A DNA stretch of 11,149 bases from Rotaria sordida (Eukaryota): the NCBI GenBank assembly GCA_905250005.1, contig CAJNOH010000272.1:135875-147023 (forward strand). The letters are read 5' to 3'. The notes below the pieces were generated by a model. It ran no database searches, was not told the DNA's origin, and saw only the letters and a list, made by a program, of their open reading frames with translations. A program made the translations under genes and the position numbers. Below, piece after piece: positions 1 to 10,115 of the stretch (position 1 is its first letter; every line of letters starts with the position of its first letter).

Positions 1-405
1 AATAATTTTATCTTGATTTCTTAATAGTTTCTTTATTCAAAATTCTAAAGATTTCAAGAACGATGTGTCAAAGTCAATATTATAAAAGTCGAGATGTAGT
101 GAACATATTCAAAATACTAAGTATAAATCAATAGAAAGATAATTTTTGTGTCAATATTACCTCGAATGTTACGACGCTGTCTGACATATATATTTTTTCA
201 GAAGTCTTCAGAATTTTCAATTGAGAAAACATTCTATTAACCTGTACATATAGGATGACATAATTCATATGAAAACTGAGAAAAGATATAGTATAGTAGA
301 TTGTTTTCATTTTTTTTTTAAATGAAAGACGTATTCAAACAAAATATTTTACAAATTTCTCGTTCATGGATTCAAAATAAAATGCTTTAACAATTTCAAA
401 ATTAC

Positions 406-985: not shown

Positions 986-1524
986 ATCGTTGTTATTATT
1001 GTTGTTACTTATTTCTATTCGTATTATTCGTCAAATGTAACTAGGATTTGTAGTCTATTCTTTTTTTAATCCAATATTTAAATCTCAAAGTAAGCAATAA
1101 AAATAAGAAGAAAAACATTGGCATTTAGTAACTAACAAAATGACGACTAACCGAAGCGGCTTCTTATGGACTGGATCGTGTGAGAGATAATAGTTTATTT
1201 GCATCTGTTAATCATATGACAATTGGTTGACTATAGTAGATGTGCAGAATCTATTGTAAAACAATGAAAATTCCCACGAACGGAGACATAACTGAAAGAA
1301 TTTAAAAATAAATAGTATCAATTAAACATATCTAGAGATTTAGAATATGAGTACGACTGGGTTGGCTTCTGTTGGGCGTTAGAGAGAGCAAAGAATAATT
1401 CAAGCAATTTCCTATCGGATCTACTCCTACTCTAGAAACAAAGAAGGCTTTCATAAGTTATGTGTTATTACGAAACACACAGACCAAATTTTCAGAATTA
1501 CTGTAGGCAATATAGCAATGAAAA

Positions 1525-1620
1525 GGGTGTGGGTTGTGTATGTTAGTGTCTTCTCTTAACTCACACTCTAGGGTGTGAATGTCTGTTGCTGTCGCGTGAA
1601 TATTACACAAACCCACACCC
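1525..1620. repeat. Telomere-hexamer palindrome, copy A. It looks like two tandem hairpin units (1525–1569 and 1571–1620). The left arm is GGGTGTGGGTTGTGTA and the right arm TACACAAACCCACACCC, with an inner palindrome CACACTCTAGGGTGTG at 1562–1577.
   Basis: This is direct reverse-complement matching of the arms. The G-rich arm lies 5' on the plus strand, as in every other copy. Confidence 0.7.
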
Positions 1621-3139
1621 ACATCCAACCGAAGCACGCTGACGATAATTTGTGGCAAACACAACTGTATTTAGACCTTTCCTCAGTTTCTAAGGAGTTC
1701 TCGGAAGATCTCTGGAGAAACTATCAGACATATGGATTAAGAAAATTTCATCATGCGAGAGTCAATGACTTTTGCACTTTACTGTATATAATATTCTCTT
1801 TTGTTTCTGAAAATGAGTACGAGTGTTAATGGTTGTAGACATGAGTGTGAATATGAAGTGGAAATATGCTTACCAGTAGACGCATGTCTATAAATTTACA
1901 CAAAGGCTAGCACTAACCCACGTACTCGTTTATTACCTTTAACTGTATGTGACTGATGATAATCATCGTATTCGAATCTACGTTCATAGTCCGCAGTTTC
2001 AATCATCATCAAATTAATTTAGTCGTTTTCAACTATATACATATTGTCGTGCTTTACATTTTACTATGTTATCATTTTCATTCTACTAGGTTGTTAAGCC
2101 CTTTAAATTTCATTGGATCAGAGACTTATTTTTGACTGTGATAAATAAATAAAAGTAATAAAGTTTTCTTCTAATTACTATTGATCTAACGGTAGAATTG
2201 CGTTGTTAGTCCTGCTGACTTCATTTGTTAATTTGCAATTTTGACGACAAAGACAGAAATATTCTTGTCAACAAAAGGATCATCCATATATAAAGCCAAA
2301 AAAGAAAAATTTTCAGTTTTTTTTTTACGGTAATTGAAAAGATGTAGCTGTAAATGATACTCGTATTCTTCAGTCACATTGTCGTTCACAAATACCTTTA
2401 AAATAAAATTCGGAATTAAATGTTCACTTTTGAATCAATGTTATGATGTTCCAAAGTATTAAAATATTTTATTGAATGTATACGTTCCTTTAAACAAATA
2501 AATACTTGGTACAATGTTTATATATAAAGGATGAAGAAATATCAAACACTTTTTATTTCATTCATACAGTATACTCGATATTTATAATTTATCCGATAAA
2601 AATATTGCTTGTCTGTACAAATGAAATTTGTATTTCTCATATTATCTTTTTCAACGATAAAATACATTTGAAAAATGTATTAAAAAAGTTTCATTTACTT
2701 ACTCAGTCATAATATGATAAAAGAAGATGCAACATTTCGGTCTAAACGACAACATACGAGATTTCTAATCGTAATTTGTCCTTATTTTTTTTGTGTGTGA
2801 TGTATGGTCAATTTTGAGTCCAATCGAAGCTCATCATTTTTAGTATTTCTATTCAGGCAGAGTGAATATATGACATAGTTAGTTGATATTTTGATGAGAT
2901 AATATAAATATATATGTGACGATGAGGGTGTATATGGAAGAAAATCAGAACTCAGGTAATGGGAACTGTCTTGAGATATTAAAGTACATTAGAAAAAAAA
3001 TCCACGTCTCTATACATTACCATCCGGGAGATATCTAGAGAGCCAAGTTGTAAAATAGGGCATTTACGCGTACAAAACTTTTTTTTTTGGAATATACTTC
3101 AAGCTACAGAGCTGGGTTTGCTTTTATTTGAAAGAGAAT

Positions 3140-3192
3140 CTTGAGGGTATGGGTGTATTCTTTTGTAGCACTTACACCCACACCCTCTCAAG
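3140..3192. repeat. Telomere-hexamer palindrome, copy B: CTTGAGGGTATGGGTGTA – 15-nt loop – TACACCCACACCCTCTCAAG.
   Basis: An 18–20-bp near-perfect inverted repeat. It lies inside the (probably spurious) minus ORF 3099–3344. Confidence 0.75.
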
Positions 3193-4199
3193 CATTGTGT
3201 AACTGTAGAAGCAGATCTACCTTTGATTTCTAGAAGAAAAGTTCGATAAACTTGGCGAACATATTCTATTAAGTCACCTTTTGAGACTTGCAGTGGATGC
3301 GATGCGTGAGATATGTTGAGAAAAATTAAATCTTTGTTTTTCATTAACTTTCATTCATCAAATATGTCAAGCGACCAAATTCTATCTTCAACCTTTTCTC
3401 TTTACTCTTTCATCGATCATTACGTTAATGTAAGAATAATGGAAGCTTTCAAATGTTGTAGGGTTGCCTTTCGAGCAAGCAACAAAAAATAACAAGAAAA
3501 ACAGAACAATGCGGGTGATTACCTCGCTTCATACTGCACAAGAATGTAGTAACTCATTTTTTAGTTTTTTCATTTAGTTGACAATAACACCTTGGAGACG
3601 GTGTACACTAATTGTGAGTACGTAAAATATTACAACTAACAGTCTAATACAAACTTCATAGATAGATCTATTTGTTCTAAAGAATAAACTAGGAACGATA
3701 TTGGGTAAATCAATAATATTTCTATTCAGGCAGTACCATTATCAATGTCACTAATCATGGCTTGAGAATGGATCAGAAATATTAACGATAGACTCAGACT
3801 TGTAGCTAATATTGATTCAATCAGTTCCATTTTGCAGATAATCGAATATGTGGTAGAATAATAACGATTACAAAATGTTGCATTCGTAGAATTCCTTAAA
3901 AATTTTTCCAAAAAATGCATTTTTGAAGAAATATTTGGAAATAAAACTGGTACAACTTTGCCCAGCATACCTACTTCGTGATGTCTCATTCGAATCTGTT
4001 TTATCCACCGCAACTGGAAGAGTTCCATCGATTTGCTCATGACTCATGGATCCTTATCCAAAATCACACAGAAATGTAGTTCACAAAGATCCAGGTAATC
4101 CAGCTTCCGAATATGTATTCTATTGTCTATGTCTACTTTCGCGTCATCAGGCACTTGTAAAGTATGACGTTGTTAGCGTCAATAGAGGTCATCCTATTA

Positions 4200-4370
4200 C
4201 TGCTGACTACTGTCTTTATTAATCATTGGTTTCTTTCTTGCTCTCATATCAGTTATTTTTCTATATTCTCTCTCTCTGATTCATATCAGTGGTTAATGTT
4301 TTTTTTTTCTTTCCTAATTGTTATTTTTATTGATTATCCTTCTCCTTTCTTTCTTCTTTCATCATTATAA
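4200..4370 (+). repeat. Polypyrimidine (CT/T-rich) low-complexity tract of about 170 nt.
   Basis: It contains runs such as 'tctctctctg', 'ttttttttttctttcc' and 'ccttctcctttctttcttctttc'. It explains the artefactual 68-aa ORF 4164–4370. Confidence 0.6.
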
Positions 4371-4775
4371 TATTTTGTTCTATTTTATTAGCAAAACCTC
4401 ATCACAATACGAATATACGGTAGGCGTGCTCTTTCTTTTTCGCATGAGATTTCTCATTGCCTTGTCGGACTAGCATCTAGATTAAGTTCCCTTAATATCA
4501 AAATCGGCAATTTTCGCCGATTTGTAGAAGAAATCACGATTATGCAAATAGGACTAGAATAAAAAAATAAAAAAATATCTCTGCATCGCTACAGTCGAAT
4601 TGACTGAATTTTTGGTTAGTGACAGAAGATTATTGATGGTATCATGAAAGTAATTTTATCAATTATTAAGTAAAAAAAAAAGTACATGCGTAATGTGTTT
4701 CATAACTAATTTTGTCTTGTCATTTAAGACAATGATAAAAACACATCAAAACAAACCTGATAAATAATTTTGTAT

Positions 4776-4984
4776 TGATGCACACAAAACAAGTTTTTTA
4801 CACTAATTAGTTTCAAAATCAACGATTACAAAGTTTCGAGCTTTATGGAATATTGCTTCTTTTTTGCACGAAAGTTAGTGTTTTGATGGTCAATGTGCCC
4901 TAATGGTTTATTTTACTTATGCAACATGAATTTCAGCATTTAAACTAACTAGTAGTTTTGAAAACTTGTTTTGTGTAAATCAAT
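4776..4984. mobile_element. MITE-like non-autonomous DNA element (~209 bp) with ~40-bp terminal inverted repeats (TTGATGCACACAAAACAAGTTTT ... AAAACTTGTTTTGTGTAAATCAA) flanked by TA/TA. This suggests a Tc1/mariner-type (Stowaway-like) origin.
   Basis: The reverse complement of 4943–4984 aligns with 4776–4815 at about 85% identity. TA dinucleotides lie immediately outside both ends (4774–4775 and 4985–4986). There is no internal ORF. Confidence 0.5.
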
Positions 4985-5690
4985 ATAGGATTATCCATAA
5001 AGTTTGTTTTGATTTATTCTTATTATTTTCTTAGATGATAAATCAAAATTATTTATGAAAAGTTATATATATGTATTCTTTTTTTTTTACTTGATAATAG
5101 GCAAAATTGTTTTCATGATGTCAACAATAGTATTTAACAGTAGTATGTGGTTATATTAGTTTCTCGAAAAAAATATTGTAATCATAAGGCTACTGATGGG
5201 CCACCCTTGAATATTTTCGATGATCTGGTCTACTCATAGCATTTGGATCTACGACTATGATGACACTTCCATGTGTCTGCAATAAATAGTACAAAAACAA
5301 AGTTTATTTTTTGTCTTAGATTAATATTAATTAATCAGTTTGACAATCAGATGATCTCAATAGAAGAAAAAAGAAACATATGATTGAATGAATATTAACC
5401 GAAATAACTTGACTCGAATAACTTTTTCGACATGTGAACAAAAATATTTAAGTCTACTGTAAACTCTAAAGTTCCGTACAACTACTAGATCAGTTAGAAA
5501 AATGAAATTTCCTAATAGCATTTGTCATGTTAAAATCATAGGAAAGAGCATTGACTTCATAAACTTTCATCTAATTACAGGCATCTTTTTCTTGAATTCG
5601 ATAAAGATCATTGATGATGTTGCTCGATACATACTCTCAAAATATTGTGTTCAGATCAGAGACTGAAACGAATAGATGAATAGTAATGTA

Positions 5691-5720
5691 GATTCGATTC
5701 GATTCGATTTAGATTAGATT
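5691..5720. repeat. Pentanucleotide microsatellite (GATTC)3 degenerating into GATTT/AGATT units.
   Basis: The sequence is 'gattcgattcgattcgatttagattagatt'. Confidence 0.7.
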
Positions 5721-7127
5721 TTAAATATGTAATTTTACATACTATAAATTTTTTCGAGATGTTTTCTTCATGGCAATGATAATTGTCTATCAAATATACT
5801 AGAATTTATATATTTGTACGTGTCAAAATATGCACGATACAAAAACCAGCATAAGTTCGAATTTTTTTTTTGCAATACACACACCGTTTGATACTTCAGG
5901 AAAGTCGAACATTTTTGCAAGAGAGAGTCGTTAACTACCTACTACCATTAGACAGTACTTGAAAACGAATATTACTATTCAATAATGAACATGCTATGAT
6001 AGCTGTTAAGTGTCAAGAAGATAATGTATAGGAAGCTTTTGCGTAAAATGAAGCAGAAAAACGAAACTCCATCCAAGTTCGACATAATTATCGTGAAGAG
6101 AAAATACTACAATTGACTACTAACATAAACATACATTATAGATTACAACAATCGAGAAATGACAAAGATAATTGCTATTCCTTGTTAGCAATCGTCTTTT
6201 ATATCATGCAATGGTATCATTCTATAACAAAGAAATAAGTTATTATAAACCGTATATGTTAGAAAGGATTTGATTATGGTAATGTTCAATTTCATTTAGT
6301 TTCTATCTCTGATTCAGACATTGATATCATCAGTAATAGAATTATCTTGATCATCTCAACAGCCAATCTTTTTCAGTCAGTGCATAACGAGAACTTCAAG
6401 AAAGTCAGCAAAAAAAAATCAATCAGGTGTGCCCTCTATCCATGGCTACATATACTACTAGTTGTAGAAAAGTTATCGAGATAATGAATATATCTTCGAG
6501 CCTTCAACAATGTCGATTTATCAAAAGAGACAATATTCGATAAACAAATGGATCTTTTCCTAAAAACATAAAATTATCTCGATCAACAAACTAATCACTC
6601 TAATCAAATACTTAGAGTAAGGAGATTAGTAAAATCGATTTTTTGATTAGTAGTTGAAAATTAACTTAAGATAACTCGTATTAGATAAGTATTATCGTTT
6701 AAGTTACTTTTTTTTCTTTATTGTGACAAAAAATTGACCGTAATTGATGAATTTTTTTTCGATTGACATCGAATAAGAGAAAATTTTCAATATGAAATGA
6801 GTATTTTGTAAGTTTTTTTTTACAATATTTGTCTATCAAATACAATAAAAGCAAAGAAAATTACGAATTGGATTATCGTTAATGTCTTCAATGAAAATGT
6901 TTCTAAAGAAGAATTTTATATAAAATTAGAGAAAATTTTTCTTCTCCTCACAATTATTAATGATTGAACTTTCTTCAAGATTTATACAAAGGAAAAAAAC
7001 AAAACGAGATAGTCGATATGTAATGGAAGATAAGTATGAAGAGTCTAAGTCTATGGATGATGTTTCAAAATTTATGAGTTTGATTTTTTTTCTCGTCAAG
7101 ATCTAGTTATTCGAGGAAAATATCGAC

Positions 7128-7172
7128 TAGGGTGTGTGTGTTCCCTTCGTGCATGCTTATACTCACCCTCTT
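7128..7172. repeat. Degenerate possible copy C: AGGGTGTGTGTGTTCCC ... GCATGC ... ACTCACCCTC.
   Basis: It has a GGGTGTG-type left arm and a CACCCTC right arm but much weaker pairing. It may be unrelated GT-rich sequence. Confidence 0.3.
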
Positions 7173-7277
7173 TACAAAACGAATTTTAAATTCGCATTCC
7201 TCGATTGCGGAAACAGCTAATCAAAATTAATAAAAAGAAAAAGAACTAATTTTTTTCGTCAATTTGATCCTCCTTGA

Positions 7278-7285
7278 TATAAATA
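7278..7285 (+). promoter_or_regulatory. TATA-like box (TATAAATA) upstream of the 274-aa ORF.
   Basis: It is about 340 nt upstream of the ATG. It would imply a long or spliced 5'UTR, and acceptor-like sequences 'ttttttttcag' (7340) and 'ttatttatag' (7613) lie between. Weak. Confidence 0.15.
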
Positions 7286-7622
7286 AAGTACACAATTTCA
7301 ATATCATCCTACATCATCGAATTGTTAATCTTGCTTTAGTTTTTTTTTCAGCTAATTTGTGAGGAATTGGCTTGAAAAGTATTTTGACATTTCTCAGTAT
7401 ACGATGTCTAGATGTACAGTAGATGACATAAATACAGCTGAATTTTGAATGAAACAAAATCTCGGCAATGCTTCATATGAAGTGCTTTTTGATCCATGTT
7501 CGTAAAAATATCAATTTGAATTGTTCACAGTAGTGTCATCTCTCTTCGTTGATGCTGGTCACCATCACTTTATTTTTAATGTATATTTTTCCGTCAAAAT
7601 TTTGACTTATTTATAGATAATA

Positions 7623-8447
7623 ATGTCACAAGAGGCACTTGATACACCTTCAAATCACGATGATGAGAAACCAAATCATATGATCATCTGGCTCGATTCA
7701 TCTATCGGTAATCCAAACGAATATCTACATTTGAAAAAGGCTTTCGCAAGTAATACTGATCCACGCCATGAAACTTGGACTATGCTTACCGACAAGGATT
7801 ATGACAATTTGCTTATTGCAACAGAAGCTCAAGAGGTAAAATTCGAAGGTGTACGCTTTCTTCTGCAAGCTTTTACTGACGAAAAAGATTGTCTCAAAGC
7901 TTTTGAGAACAATCAAGACAAGCATATCTTTTTCATTACTTCTGGACTATTAGGAATGAAAATTGTACCACAAATTATGGAACACTATAGACATATTTTT
8001 ACCGATCTAATCACTGATCAGCCGTACATGTCCATATATGTTTTCTGTCTCGATATGGAGGGACATGCTAACTGGGCAGTTGACTACATCGGCTATATTC
8101 AAATGTTCGACTTCGACGCAGACTTATTGGAACGTATGACACTTGATATTTCTAAATATTTCATTGAGCGTAGTAAACGACTGCGACAGGATAATGACTT
8201 GAAAGGTGCACTTCAACGTTTACATTGGGCAAAGAAACTCTGTCATCAGCATGACAAAATGGCACAAAAAATTTCTACAGATAATCCTCGACCGGTGCAA
8301 GAAAGTCAAACAATGAAGGATATTAATGCGCTAATAAACGAAATCGAACAAATATTACCTAAAGACTCTTCTCTACGAAATAGAAGCAGTAGTGATAATG
8401 ATGACAATGAGGAGAACTATGTACGATCAAGTGAACCGAGTAGTTGA
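7623..8447 (+). CDS. Hypothetical protein of 274 aa, apparently single-exon. It has an N-terminal ~150-aa globular domain ('IIWLDSSIGNPNEY...FTDEKDCLKAFENNQDKHIFFITSGLLGMKIVPQIMEHY...IYVFCLDMEGHANWAVDY') and an acidic, Ser-rich, low-complexity C-terminus.
   Basis: It is the longest ORF in the window. The start context 'aataATGTC' has A at -3, and the TGA stop is followed by AATAAA about 118 nt downstream. Codon usage is compatible with the other exons. From memory, the 'hhWLD...F.D..DC...hhFhhSG.LG..hhP' pattern resembles an uncharacterised N-terminal domain of large bdelloid-rotifer families (TPR/NHL/ART fusions); this was not verified by search. Confidence 0.6.
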   Translation: MSQEALDTPSNHDDEKPNHMIIWLDSSIGNPNEYLHLKKAFASNTDPRHETWTMLTDKDYDNLLIATEAQEVKFEGVRFLLQAFTDEKDCLKAFENNQDKHIFFITSGLLGMKIVPQIMEHYRHIFTDLITDQPYMSIYVFCLDMEGHANWAVDYIGYIQMFDFDADLLERMTLDISKYFIERSKRLRQDNDLKGALQRLHWAKKLCHQHDKMAQKISTDNPRPVQESQTMKDINALINEIEQILPKDSSLRNRSSSDNDDNEENYVRSSEPSS

Positions 8448-8564
8448 TCTATTACTTTTCATTTATCTAATCGAAACTAATATCCTACCATAGTTGTTGC
8501 TTGTTAATAGATTTTATGTGTGTGATTCTCGAGTCTTGTAACCTCTCTATTTCGATCGAGAAAA

Positions 8565-8570
8565 AATAAA
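8565..8570 (+). promoter_or_regulatory. Candidate poly(A) signal AATAAA for the 7623–8447 gene.
   Basis: The hexamer lies about 118 nt after the stop codon. Confidence 0.3.
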
Positions 8571-9117
8571 GAAATTTCACTCGCACAATCTCTCTCATTC
8601 TTTCATAAGTATAACTCATTTCATCGATCTCAAAGATTCAATACCGTACGTCAATGATATTGTCATCACCATGATTTTATTCCATCATTTGAATTTAGGA
8701 ATGATTCATAAGTTGTATTTATGCAAACTACATTGTACTGCGAAAATGCATTCATATTTTGTATCACTAGCCGAATACTTCTTTCCTCTCTCTCTTTCTT
8801 ATTGTTTTTTTTGTCCAATACAAATCGACAAATACGGTTTTACCCGTAGGCAAATACTTTAATAAAAAGACAATAATGGTTCTTTATCAATACAATGATT
8901 CATGGCTATTCATGGAACGAATTATTATTATGAGATGTTTAGACTACTGTATATATGTATATATATTTCAGCCATTTTAAAAGACAGCACTGTTAGGCTT
9001 TTCTACTGTTCCATCTGATAATTGAACAGTCGAGAAATGATATAGTTACACATGATCCTGCGTAATCATCAAAATTGATATTCCTCTTTCGGTTTGATTT
9101 TGTCACTATCCATTTTT

Positions 9118-9169
9118 GAAGGGTGTGGGTGTGGTTCAGGTCTCCCGTTAATTGACACCCACACCCTCA
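9118..9169. repeat. Telomere-hexamer palindrome, copy D: GAAGGGTGTGGGTGTGG – loop – ACACCCACACCCTCA.
   Basis: Both arms are exactly (GGGTGT)2 and (ACACCC)2, with about 16 bp of pairing and a loop of about 20 nt. Confidence 0.75.
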
Positions 9170-10014
9170 TTTTGATCGATATTTAGTACATCGATAAAGC
9201 CAAGATATAAAAAGTTTTGATATAATAAAGAATTTTGTTCATTTAATAAAGCATGCCATTCATGACAAGCTAAAAAAGAAAGAAAATTTAATAGAAAATA
9301 TCAGTCTTCTATTTGTTGATAATTGAAACCTCGTTTTATGAGATTATTGATAAGTAGTTTCATTTATTTATTTTTAATAAAAATCGGCAATATCAGTTTT
9401 TATTGTTAAATCAATAAATAATTGTACACGAACAGGATTTATTGATCGTAAATCAATTGAGGACATTCAATCAATTCAAAAAAAGAATTCTAAATTAAAA
9501 TAAAACATTTTAAAAATAATAACACATCTTTGTTTTCTTTTTGTTACTCGATCAACATTTGAATGTTTCTATTGAAATTGTCCAATCCATATTGATTGAA
9601 TAAGTTTATCCTATTTTTCACTTGCATTTATTAATAAATACAAATACACATTATTTATCTTCAACAGTATCAACAGCAAAACATAGATCAAAATTATTAA
9701 GTGAACTTAACTAATATCTACGAATCATTCTATCAATATAATAATATATTTTGTTTTTGAAAAATTAATGCCAACAAGAACTTTAATTAAAACTAATTCA
9801 ATGTAAAGAAAAATTATTTTATTGACTCAACTGACTCTGAATGGATCTTTATTATCTAAAATGTTGTAAAATAATTTTTTTTCTCCTGAATCGACATTGT
9901 ATGAAAAATAGGCTAAAACAATGATATACATCTTTGAGTAAAAGTCTTTCCCCTCCGGATCTCAGTCATTATAAAAATTAGTGGTTTGAAAATTCGTGTG
10001 CACATACTTCACTT

Positions 10015-10076
10015 GGAGGGTGTGGGCGTAGGTGTAGCTATATATCTTTCCTTTACTCACATCCACATCCACACCC
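10015..10076. repeat. Telomere-hexamer palindrome, copy E: GGAGGGTGTGGGCGTAGGTGTA – loop – TCACATCCACATCCACACCC.
   Basis: An imperfect inverted repeat with the same G-arm then C-arm orientation and an AT-rich loop. Confidence 0.6.
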
Positions 10077-10115
10077 ATTTTCTTGAAAGAAATATTTCAA
10101 TCTTGTCAATGGAAT

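Follow-up and report, generated by a model that had tools for sequence, protein, structure and literature searches.

Head-to-head telomeric-repeat palindromes in the bdelloid rotifer Rotaria sordida: possible junctions between DNA ends carrying short telomere tracts

The window analysed here, a stretch of 11,149 nucleotides from the bdelloid rotifer Rotaria sordida, contains six short palindromes, each consisting of a telomere repeat that faces its own reverse complement (Table 1). All of them are intergenic. Genes and palindromes alternate along the region: a permease gene is followed by the palindromes from hairpin 1 rightwards to hairpin 5, the 274-aa gene, hairpins 3 and 4, an NHL gene and a further hairpin, located at 15268-15316 in another R. 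sordida assembly (L006). We found no fixed distance or orientation of the palindromes relative to genes. The leftmost site, which a previous reading made from the sequence alone (the sequence-only reading) had described as an apparent double copy, is indeed compound, either tandem or nested; the best fold of 1525-1620 places an outer stem (1525-1540/1604-1620) around a second small palindrome.

Table 1. Palindromes and related features of the window, with energies of DNA folding and z-scores against shuffled sequences
Feature	Position	Strand	Composition	Fold (interval; kcal/mol; z)
Hairpin 1a	1523..1570	.	G-arm GGGTGTGGGTTGTGTATGTTAGT; canonical centre GTCTTCTCTTAAC at 1548-1560; short, decayed C-arm TCACACTCTA	-5.3; z -2.0
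Hairpin 1b	1571..1628	.	G-arm GGGTGTGAATGT; 22-nt spacer; C-arm ACACAAACCCACACCCACATCCAA	1568-1630; no better than shuffles, z -0.2
Possible old decayed relative	1811..1931	.	palindrome of 121 bp, one arm GT-rich and the other AC-rich; membership uncertain	-17.3; z -3.2
Hairpin 2	3138..3192	.	ATCTTGA-GGGTATGGGTGT; 17-nt spacer; ACACCCACACCC-TCTCAAG	3136-3196; -12.4; z -4.4
Block between hairpins 2 and 3	3193..9112	+	5.9 kb; contains the 274-aa gene at 7623-8447	
Hairpin 5, degenerate	7128..7172	.	GGGTGTGTGTGT; 19-nt spacer; ACTCACCCTC	7124-7176; no better than shuffles, z -0.8
Hairpin 3	9113..9170	.	TTTTTGAA-GGGTGTGGGTGT; 22-nt spacer; ACACCCACACCC-TCA	9114-9174; -14.1; z -3.5
Hairpin 4	10015..10078	.	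GGAGGGTGTGGGCGTAGGTGT; spacer ending in ATCTTTCCTTTAC; TCACATCCACATCCACACCCAT	10011-10082; -8.0; z -2.0

A search for GGGTGTGGGTGT with at most one mismatch returned nine matches in the window, against 0.00 expected from 200 shuffles, and every copy that the sequence-only reading had listed is present at the coordinates given there. Without exception, the matches pair as (GGGTGT)n–spacer–(ACACCC)m, with the G-arm preceding the C-arm at 1525-1626, 3145-3185, 7130-7170 (degenerate), 9121-9166 and 10018-10076. The G-rich arm lying 5' on the plus strand in every copy had been taken as an orientation signal, which it is not, because a G-first palindrome reads G-first on either strand; the metagenome matches were all reported on both strands, and "same orientation" therefore carries no strand information. 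The meaningful observation is that the order is G-then-C and never C-then-G. The ratio of the two arrangements was 11:0 in 179 kb of bdelloid DNA whose selection involved no motif search and which includes the window's own region, and 32:0 in a 110-kb set that takes in metagenome contigs selected by the motif. The 179 kb contain 48 telomere-like tracts, about 22 of which belong to the 11 head-to-head pairs, and part of the single tracts are chance matches. The window is unusually dense, with six palindromes in 11 kb compared with 0-2 per 20 kb elsewhere. The arms span from 2 to more than 12 hexamer units and are frequently very unequal (19 versus 59 nt in locus L013, 19 versus 76 in L019 and 112 versus 34 in L059). 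Since TGTGGG is the telomere repeat of bdelloids and the source is R. sordida, we identify the palindromes as interstitial telomeric repeats, which the sequence-only reading had suspected, and add that they are joined head-to-head; the organism's own telomeric hexamer occupies internal sites in four R. sordida assemblies, as in short interstitial telomeric sequences (ITS).

The similarity among copies extends beyond the hexamers. On its outer side, the shared arm is prolonged by a heptamer that reads ATCTTGA at the left end and TCAAGAT at the right end. Of 54 well-preserved arm ends, 9 are followed by TCAAGA with at most one mismatch, compared with 15 of 1445 other CCC sites (1%; odds ratio 19, p = 4e-8). 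The heptamer consensus fades outward (T 50%, C 43% and A 46% at positions 1-3), and where one side carries the full heptamer, the opposite side often begins with TCA or TCAA. This occurrence on two sides excludes a one-sided pre-existing target. Between the arms, a centre CTTCTCTT(T/A)AC recurs in at least seven loci; GTCTTCTCTT(A/T)AC is positioned precisely between the arms, in either orientation, in R. sordida, Rotaria sp. Silwood2 and metagenome bdelloids (at least seven loci). The 7-mer core of CTTCTCTT is present in 9 of 37 hairpins, where 1.4 ± 1.2 are expected, and the window loops at 1548-1560, 9139-9153 and 10046-10058 are similar to this centre. Conserved stems with unrelated loops, as initially described, thus hold for most spacers but not for the subset with the common centre, and any two copies share at most about 13 nt of it.

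Shared ends and a shared centre might indicate a non-autonomous foldback (MITE-like) DNA element with the terminal inverted repeat ATCTTGA(GGGTGT)n and the core CTTCTCTTTAC, which would integrate as an already formed hairpin or palindrome and have its ends trimmed in the process. The terminal inverted repeat is conserved, heptamer included, on either side, hairpin 5 acts as a self-contained unit when the species are compared (see below), and the loci L025 and L059 are alike over 73 nt at 93% identity with an equal unit number, although these two are perhaps not independent. However, we found no target-site duplication where both ends are preserved (hairpin 2, L037, L047 and L058; flanks read directly), the number of hexamer units varies too widely between and within copies, and the spacers are mostly unrelated. 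All-against-all BLAST gave arm-to-arm matches alone, except for L025/L059, so that near-identical whole copies were not found, and a transposase with matching ends was not seen. Typical MITEs had already been dismissed in the sequence-only reading, correctly so. We regard a foldback element as unlikely.

We compared the window with three other R. sordida assemblies (L006-L008), which are 98.3-98.8% identical to it and contain all window copies, internally and with sequence variants. Variable columns among the four sequences amount to 6.5% in the hairpins and 2.3% outside (p = 5e-5), about a threefold faster evolution. Most arm substitutions are transitions, G/A in the G-arm and C/T in the C-arm, and disrupt pairing; of about nine such substitutions among the four sequences, not one was compensated. 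Two of the assemblies lack one hexamer unit of hairpin 3, a unit-loss polymorphism. An assembly or amplification artefact, in which telomeric reads are chimerically joined in inverted orientation, could be suspected from the many metagenome examples at contig ends and from perfect palindromes with a 3-nt centre on some non-rotifer contigs. The window copies, on the other hand, are internal in four independent assemblies, where they differ at single positions and in unit number, and hairpin 3 has an orthologue in a sister species, which leaves this explanation a negligible probability.

The palindromes also lack constraint. The sequence-only reading had favoured a hairpin under selection for its structure or bound by protein, or else a cis-acting promoter element. 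Such a functional hairpin, whether a DNA element bound by protein (inverted telobox or Rap1-like sites), a transcription boundary or a small-RNA precursor, would be consistent with the intergenic location of all copies, with the folding of three copies much better than shuffles, and with a generic likeness to miRNA precursor models. The regions of hairpins 1b and 5 do not share this folding. Hairpins in other loci matched many miRNA precursor models on both strands at 25-73 bits, far below the gathering scores of 50-168, and any long hairpin produces such matches on both of its strands. The only known structured RNA matched in the window, away from the hairpins, was SNORD115, with 27.4 bits where its gathering score is 39. 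The comparison with Rfam that had been proposed thus produced no fitting family. The hairpins evolve faster than their flanks without compensation, are decayed or lost in sister species, lie at variable distance and orientation to genes, and differ greatly in density among regions. We found no support for selection of a hairpin function and consider such a function very improbable.

In comparison with the sister species, we found that boundaries of homology and of a deletion coincide with the palindromes. The hairpin 3 orthologue is decayed in Rotaria sp. Silwood1, and Silwood2 retains only a remnant of its G-arm. The three species cease to be homologous at hairpin 3 and within 33-85 bp of hairpin 2; the distance between hairpin 2 and the left end of the block common to R. 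sordida and Silwood1 is 33 bp. Hairpin 5, flanked by a 2-bp CT repeat, is absent in Silwood1 and gone together with 175 bp in Silwood2, where its right edge marks one end of a 218-bp deletion; it may, however, have been present ancestrally and lost twice. Comparison with Silwood1 and Silwood2 yielded no clean pair of filled and empty sites, and that for hairpin 2 depends on the alignment. The block 3193-9112 is 70-86% conserved in aligned segments of both sister species, with different neighbours in each, and is circularly permuted in Silwood2, where the permuted block begins directly at a hairpin (L001 5726-5800).

We propose, with a probability of about one half, that the palindromes are junctions of two DNA ends, each of which had first been given a short telomere-repeat tract. 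Two 3' ends would be exposed, either on both sides of one double-strand break or on different fragments. A reverse transcriptase would extend each 3' end from a hypothetical RNA template of the form 5'-X-(ACACCC)n-UCAAGAU...-3', and the annealing position would set how much of ATCTTGA, if any, precedes a variable number of GGGTGT units. From one end, synthesis might sometimes continue beyond the repeats into the fixed CTTCTCTT(T/A)AC. Ligation of the extended ends would then create flank-ATCTTGA-(GGGTGT)n-spacer-(ACACCC)m-TCAAGAT-flank. The products would be neutral scars, subject to unit loss by slippage, rapid decay by transitions and possibly re-breakage. Addition to 3' ends predicts exactly the G-then-C polarity, and unequal arm lengths are expected from two separate additions. 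The putative enzyme could be telomerase or an Athena-type reverse transcriptase, its template the telomerase RNA or an Athena/Terminon tail, and its probable substrate broken DNA; the literature searched held no description of a rotifer telomerase RNA. Two observations fit the junction explanation less well. The arms of hairpin 3 are perfect in R. sordida, yet its Silwood1 orthologue is decayed, and the palindrome at 1811-1931, with 21-nt arms that are 81% complementary, has an outer palindrome different from the family (AAATGAGTACG/CGTACTCGTTT).

As a special case of the junction explanation, the region could be a fossil chain at a chromosome end, in which gene-sized fragments capped with telomere repeats at both ends were appended serially, telomere to telomere, and the hairpins are the module boundaries. 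The block 3193-9112 has a C-arm at its left and a G-arm at its right, its neighbours differ in the three species, genes alternate with hairpins, and Terminon chains have been reported to capture host genes between units (PMC6431247). Nevertheless, hairpin 5 is located within a block that is colinear in Silwood1, the region contains no Athena or Terminon remnants, the spacer orientation is mixed with the next hairpin rightward reversed, and the Silwood1 and Silwood2 contigs are perhaps paralogous copies. We therefore consider the chain distinctly unlikely.

Junction formation would have close counterparts in the same organisms. In Adineta vaga, telomeric repeats and Athena fragments were found at deletion breakpoints (PMC13564844). 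Bdelloid neotelomeres and Athena/Terminon attachment involve the same repeat and likewise proceed by RT extension of 3' ends that breaks have exposed, and the TCACCC variant units of Terminon tails are also found in the palindrome arms (PMC13564844, PMC3846280, PMC6431247). The Athena/Terminon products described are, however, single-orientation repeats capping 5'-truncated Athena copies beside a hammerhead ribozyme (PMC13564844, PMC3846280, PMC6431247), whereas the tracts here face each other without an Athena body. The hallmark of the Athena/Terminon 3' end is a hammerhead ribozyme immediately upstream of (ACACCC)n (PMC6431247); a search of the window and of 19 loci for hammerheads gave no match with an E-value of 1 or less. 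Neither an RT gene nor an RT-like ORF was found in the hairpin-bearing loci, and the ORFs of the window had no Pfam match.

The palindromes also resemble the vertebrate short ITS and TERC-ITS (Nergadze et al.; PMC2246262, PMC8537989), short hexamer tracts at internal sites that are explained by an action of telomerase on broken ends while these are being joined. Vertebrate break sites received insertions of telomeric repeats, in some cases together with the part of the telomerase RNA that adjoins the template, and 3 of the 41 loci are head-to-head with repeats on both sides, for which the authors invoke a second telomerase on the other end (PMC8537989). The head-to-head arrangement, rare in vertebrates, is the recurrent form in bdelloids, where the flanking signature is a 7-nt motif on both sides and the density is as high as six per 11 kb. 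Some TERC-ITS include a copy of what adjoins the telomerase RNA template, on its upstream (type B) or its downstream (type C) side (PMC2246262, PMC8537989), to which the conserved neighbours ATCTTGA outside the arms and CTTCTCTTTAC inside can be compared. It is a speculative and rather improbable extension that the desiccation-tolerant bdelloids routinely cap broken or incoming fragments with telomere stubs at both ends before stitching them, leaving parts of the genome as patchworks of gene-sized modules linked telomere to telomere. If this extension is true, the palindromes would reveal a distinct route of break repair and DNA capture that could underlie bdelloid rearrangements and foreign-gene uptake, and the two motifs would directly show the sequence that surrounds the template in the bdelloid telomerase RNA.

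Two other arrangements of internal telomeric repeats offer a structural comparison. The ciliate telomere-bearing transposon-like elements Tel-1 (Tetrahymena) and TBE1 (Oxytricha) have telomeric repeats at internal positions, adjacent to a short conserved sequence, with the C-strand and the G-strand placed around a segment. The block 3193-9112 is arranged in the same way, but it has no transposase or long conserved terminal sequence, and hairpin 5 is a unit on its own. The human 2q13 array, a relic of an ancestral chromosome fusion, consists of head-to-head telomeres in which (G-strand)n is directly followed by (C-strand)m. Its polarity is that of the palindromes reported here, but 2q13 is one large array from the fusion of whole chromosomes, whereas the bdelloid palindromes are many tiny spacer-bearing junctions with 2-12 units per arm, a few kb apart.

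The window holds a real, unusually dense set of head-to-head interstitial telomere-repeat junctions. Nine matches to GGGTGTGGGTGT were found in it at up to one mismatch, against 0.00 expected, and they pair into hairpins consisting of a G-arm, (GGGTGT)n, a spacer and a C-arm, (ACACCC)m (table). The site at 1525-1620 is compound, and a seventh hairpin lies just beyond the window edge. TGTGGG is the accepted bdelloid telomere repeat, was so used for Rotaria by Nowell et al., and is present at every scaffold end of the A. vaga AV20 assembly. Contigs from three other R. sordida assemblies (L006-L008) align with the window from end to end at 98.3-98.8% identity and carry every copy with point differences, one of them without a hexamer. 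Because the copies are kept, with variants, at the same sites in these assemblies, they are real sequence, and an assembly artefact was ruled out. Folded as single-stranded DNA, hairpins 2, 3 and 4 were better than shuffles (z = -4.4, -3.5 and -2.0, respectively); hairpins 1b and 5 were no better. One further palindrome of the window differs from the hairpins in its outer sequence and, judged from that sequence, may be unrelated to the family.

Positions of the hairpins and of other features in the window and in compared contigs
Feature	Sequence	Position	Paired GGGTGTGGGTGT matches
Hairpins 1a and 1b	window	1523-1570, 1571-1628	1525-1626
Hairpin 2	window	3138-3192	3145-3185
Hairpin 5 (degenerate)	window	7128-7172	7130-7170
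Hairpin 3	window	9113-9170	9121-9166
Hairpin 4	window	10015-10078	10018-10076
Seventh hairpin	L006 (R. sordida)	15268-15316	
Centre motif	window	1548-1560	
Centre motif	L001 (Silwood2)	5736, 20023	
Shared 5.9-kb block	window	~3225-9170	
Permuted block	L001 (Silwood2)	5726-14312	
Hairpin at new left block end	L001 (Silwood2)	5726-5800	
Orthologue of hairpin 3	L061 (Silwood1)	11448-11498	
Orthologue of hairpin 3	L001 (Silwood2)	11585-11605	
tRNA gene	L012 (metagenome)	399-471	
tRNA gene	L017 (metagenome)	640-713	
Separated arms	L066	1266-1592	
Telomere-like array	L084 (R. socialis)	7655-7757	
Palindrome, other outer sequence	window	1811-1931	
Foldback palindrome	window	4631-4816, 4939-5129	
Sole long ORF	window	7623-8447	
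SNORD115-like match	window	214-284	

The sequence-only reading had stressed that the G-rich arm is 5' on the plus strand in every copy. The order G-then-C is correct, but it carries no strand information, since a palindrome reads G-first on either strand; the metagenome scan accordingly reported each match twice, once per strand. The invariant order is the polarity of two chromosome ends placed face to face. In 179 kb of bdelloid loci reached via proteins rather than the motif, which include L006 (the window's own region) and orthologous contigs, we counted 25 G-tracts and 23 C-tracts, and the tracts at most 100 nt apart formed 11 G-then-C pairs versus no C-then-G pair. In 110 kb including motif-selected metagenome contigs the count was 32 versus 0; the comparative sample amounted to ~300 kb rather than a whole genome.

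A single scan of the JGI metagenomes with GGGTGTGGGTGT-N10-40-ACACCCACACCC returned 52 loci, all ascertained by the motif, of which about 30 lie on low-GC contigs (0.31-0.42) with the same architecture as the window hairpins. These low-GC loci come mostly from a few related metagenome series (Ga0116226/228/230 samples), and one (L060) carries a gene for an F-box protein, the best named relative of which comes from Rotaria magnacalcarata. Arm length in the family ranges from 2 to more than 12 units, often very unequally within a hairpin (19 versus 59 nt in L013, 19 versus 76 in L019, 112 versus 34 in L059). L025 and L059 may represent one locus in two relatives. On two metagenome bdelloid contigs, tRNA genes stand 300-500 bp from hairpins. 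The non-rotifer matches to the pattern fall into three groups (L010, L016, L032, L039, L053; L009/L046/L050/L051; L014, L018, L027, L035 and others): palindromes of (GGGTGT)n/(ACACCC)n that are long, perfect and have a centre of 3 nt, on contigs with a GC of 0.43-0.46; a palindromic GT/AC microsatellite; and GC-rich hairpins resembling bacterial terminators. Scanning viral contigs with ACACCCACACCCTCAAGAT gave no match, and the ten matches in prokaryotic genomes all code for one same peptide and were set aside as irrelevant.

Outward, the left arm runs on into ATCTTGA and the right arm into TCAAGAT. TCAAGA, with up to one mismatch, follows 9 of the 54 well-preserved arm ends versus 15 of the 1445 CCC sites found elsewhere in this DNA (odds ratio 19, p = 4e-8). 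The heptamer consensus weakens outward, its first three positions being T 50%, C 43% and A 46% in AT-rich flanks, and from ~7 nt onward each flank is unique. In hairpins with a complete heptamer on one side, TCA or TCAA is a common start on the opposite side (hairpin 2, L025, L037, L058). Since the heptamer stands on both sides, a preference for target sites with TCAAGAT on one side was rejected. The earlier description of the loops as unrelated holds for most spacers and fails for a subset with a shared centre: GTCTTCTCTT(A/T)AC lies exactly between the arms, in either orientation, in the window, at two sites of L001 and in the metagenome loci L013, L025, L028 and L059. Of 37 hairpins, 9 contain its 7-mer core, where 1.4 +/- 1.2 would be expected (maximum 7 in 2000 resamplings). 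Window hairpins 3 and 4 have spacers similar to the centre motif, by eye at 9-10 of 13 positions. The C-arm unit adjoining the centre is usually TCAC(A)CC; TCACCC is given as a variant unit of Terminon tails (PMC6431247). On the plus strand, the five spacers of the window are rich in pyrimidines; a uniform spacer orientation across the region was rejected, since the seventh hairpin and several in L061 are reversed. Within the literature searched, we found no description of the polarity, the two-sided heptamer and the recurrent centre of these junctions.

The best reading of the hairpins is as neutral scars left by RT-primed end joining. Two DNA 3' ends would each be extended off one RNA template, X-(ACACCC)n-UCAAGAU, and then ligated; the template RNA would read CUUCUCUUUAC (or its complement)-(ACACCC)n-UCAAGAU. 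Extension of 3' ends would give G-then-C and never C-then-G, a varying annealing register would trim the heptamer from the outside on both sides, and two separate extensions would leave unequal arms. Occasional read-through beyond the repeats at one end would place the fixed centre in either orientation, the spacer otherwise being filler. If the original partner were rejoined, a simple insertion would result, and if another fragment were joined, a rearrangement boundary. The RT responsible could be telomerase or an Athena-type enzyme. The same mechanism has been proposed for vertebrate interstitial telomeric sequences and TERC-ITS, some copies of which carry telomerase-RNA sequence from just up- or downstream of the template (PMC8537989). 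Head-to-head telomeric repeats, as in the window hairpins, occur at 3 of 41 of these vertebrate loci (PMC8537989). In A. vaga, telomeric repeats and Athena fragments were recently reported at deletion breakpoints (PMC13564844), and priming on exposed 3' ends via (ACACCC)n or (TCACCC)n tails has been proposed for Athena elements, which are EN-deficient (PMC6431247). The searched literature holds no description of a rotifer telomerase RNA. Near none of the copies was a hammerhead ribozyme or an RT found, and the search for RT or transposase ORFs in the vicinity of hairpins gave only MULE and Transposase_21 genes, some kb off, in Silwood2. A rival reading, a foldback element with telomeric terminal repeats, accounts for the conserved ends and centre, yet leaves unexplained why target-site duplications are missing, why the arms are unequal and vary so widely, and why most spacers are unrelated.

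The suggestion of a structure-selected or protein-bound hairpin, or of a cis-element, is contradicted by fast, uncompensated change and by loss in sister species. In the four-way R. sordida alignment, 21 of 322 hairpin columns are variable (6.5%) versus 246 of 10,482 outside (2.3%; p = 5e-5), or ~5% when the loss of a 6-nt unit is counted once. Transitions predominate among the arm changes (G/A in the G-arm, C/T in the C-arm); the changes make mismatches, and no compensatory change was found among the four sequences. The comparison with Rfam that had been proposed, run on the window and 19 loci, returned no family at gathering level and nothing specific. The long hairpins in other loci drew matches to dozens of miRNA models, on either strand and with scores that reached a fraction of the thresholds, as any long stem does.

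Comparison with contigs of Rotaria sp. Silwood2 (L001-L005) and Silwood1 (L061), which might be paralogous rather than orthologous to the window, places hairpins at or near block boundaries. A 5.9-kb block, 70-86% conserved in aligned segments in both, has different neighbours in each of the three species. Hairpin 3 is its right end: Silwood1 has a decayed orthologue with a homologous spacer (GTTAATT), directly after which homology ends, and Silwood2 retains a decayed G-arm only, with divergence beyond. The distance from hairpin 2 to the left end is 33 bp (Silwood1) or 85 bp (Silwood2); hairpin 2 as a clean insertion beside a pre-existing TCAAGAT in Silwood1 was dropped, as MAFFT aligns the region otherwise. 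Silwood1 keeps the R. sordida order. Compared with window 3250-9138, the Silwood2 block is circularly permuted: between two hairpins lie window 4056-9138, then 1.35 kb of unique DNA, then window ~3250-4330. In this block ~270 bp (window 4056-4330) are present twice, and its new left end adjoins a hairpin with the canonical centre and a decayed C-array of ~9 units. Hairpin 5 is missing in Silwood1, where the left flank matches to the last base, and Silwood2 has a 218-bp deletion ending at most 2 bp from the right edge of the hairpin. Either hairpin 5 arose at a site also broken in Silwood2, or it was ancestral and lost twice via palindrome-started deletions; both readings imply a break site, and neither is a clean empty-site proof of insertion. 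As a special case of end joining, a chain of telomere-capped modules built at a chromosome end is suggested by the division into blocks and by genes alternating with hairpins; against it stands hairpin 5 inside a colinear block. R. sordida, two assemblies of which lack one hexamer unit, has perfect telomeric dimers as the arms of hairpin 3, beside heavily decayed orthologues in both sister species; repeated breakage and re-extension may account for this.

Bdelloid rotifers survive massive chromosome breakage and have unusually many rearrangements and foreign genes. A recurrent head-to-head stub-spacer-stub signature would mark past end-joining events at the sequence level, countable genome-wide and comparable between species that desiccate and those that do not, as well as among subtelomeres, synteny breakpoints and foreign genes. 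The sequences conserved next to the repeats provide a defined query for the undescribed telomerase RNA of rotifers or a priming Athena tail; a foldback element with telomeric ends would likewise be undescribed for rotifers. In a small sample, partly ascertained through the hairpins, we counted ~17 head-to-head pairs in 116 kb of desiccating Rotaria, none in 61 kb from non-desiccating Rotaria (L062, L084-L086: R. magnacalcarata, R. socialis) and none in 47 kb of Adineta (L067, L081-L082). With the ascertained region left out, this absence is not significant. In R. socialis, a telomere-like C-strand array of ~100 nt, degenerate and with a super-period of ~30 nt, has no facing G-arm.

The sole long ORF of the window (274 aa) has 59 homologues, and all those with a source name are from bdelloid rotifers; the nearest are from Rotaria sp. 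Silwood2 (83%), Silwood1 (80%) and R. sordida (86-92%, partial). The product has no Pfam domain, and the gene family forms tandem arrays at other R. sordida and Silwood1 loci (L066, L068). On L066, a G-arm (left flank TTTTGAA) and a C-arm stand ~290 bp apart with AT-rich repetitive DNA between them, as if a hairpin spacer had received an insertion. The Rfam scan of the window gave one weak SNORD115-like match (27.4 bits versus a gathering score of 39, E = 0.11), probably due to chance. A foldback, MITE-like palindrome of ~500 bp, whose arms are 69-76% complementary, is also found in the Silwood1 and Silwood2 blocks.
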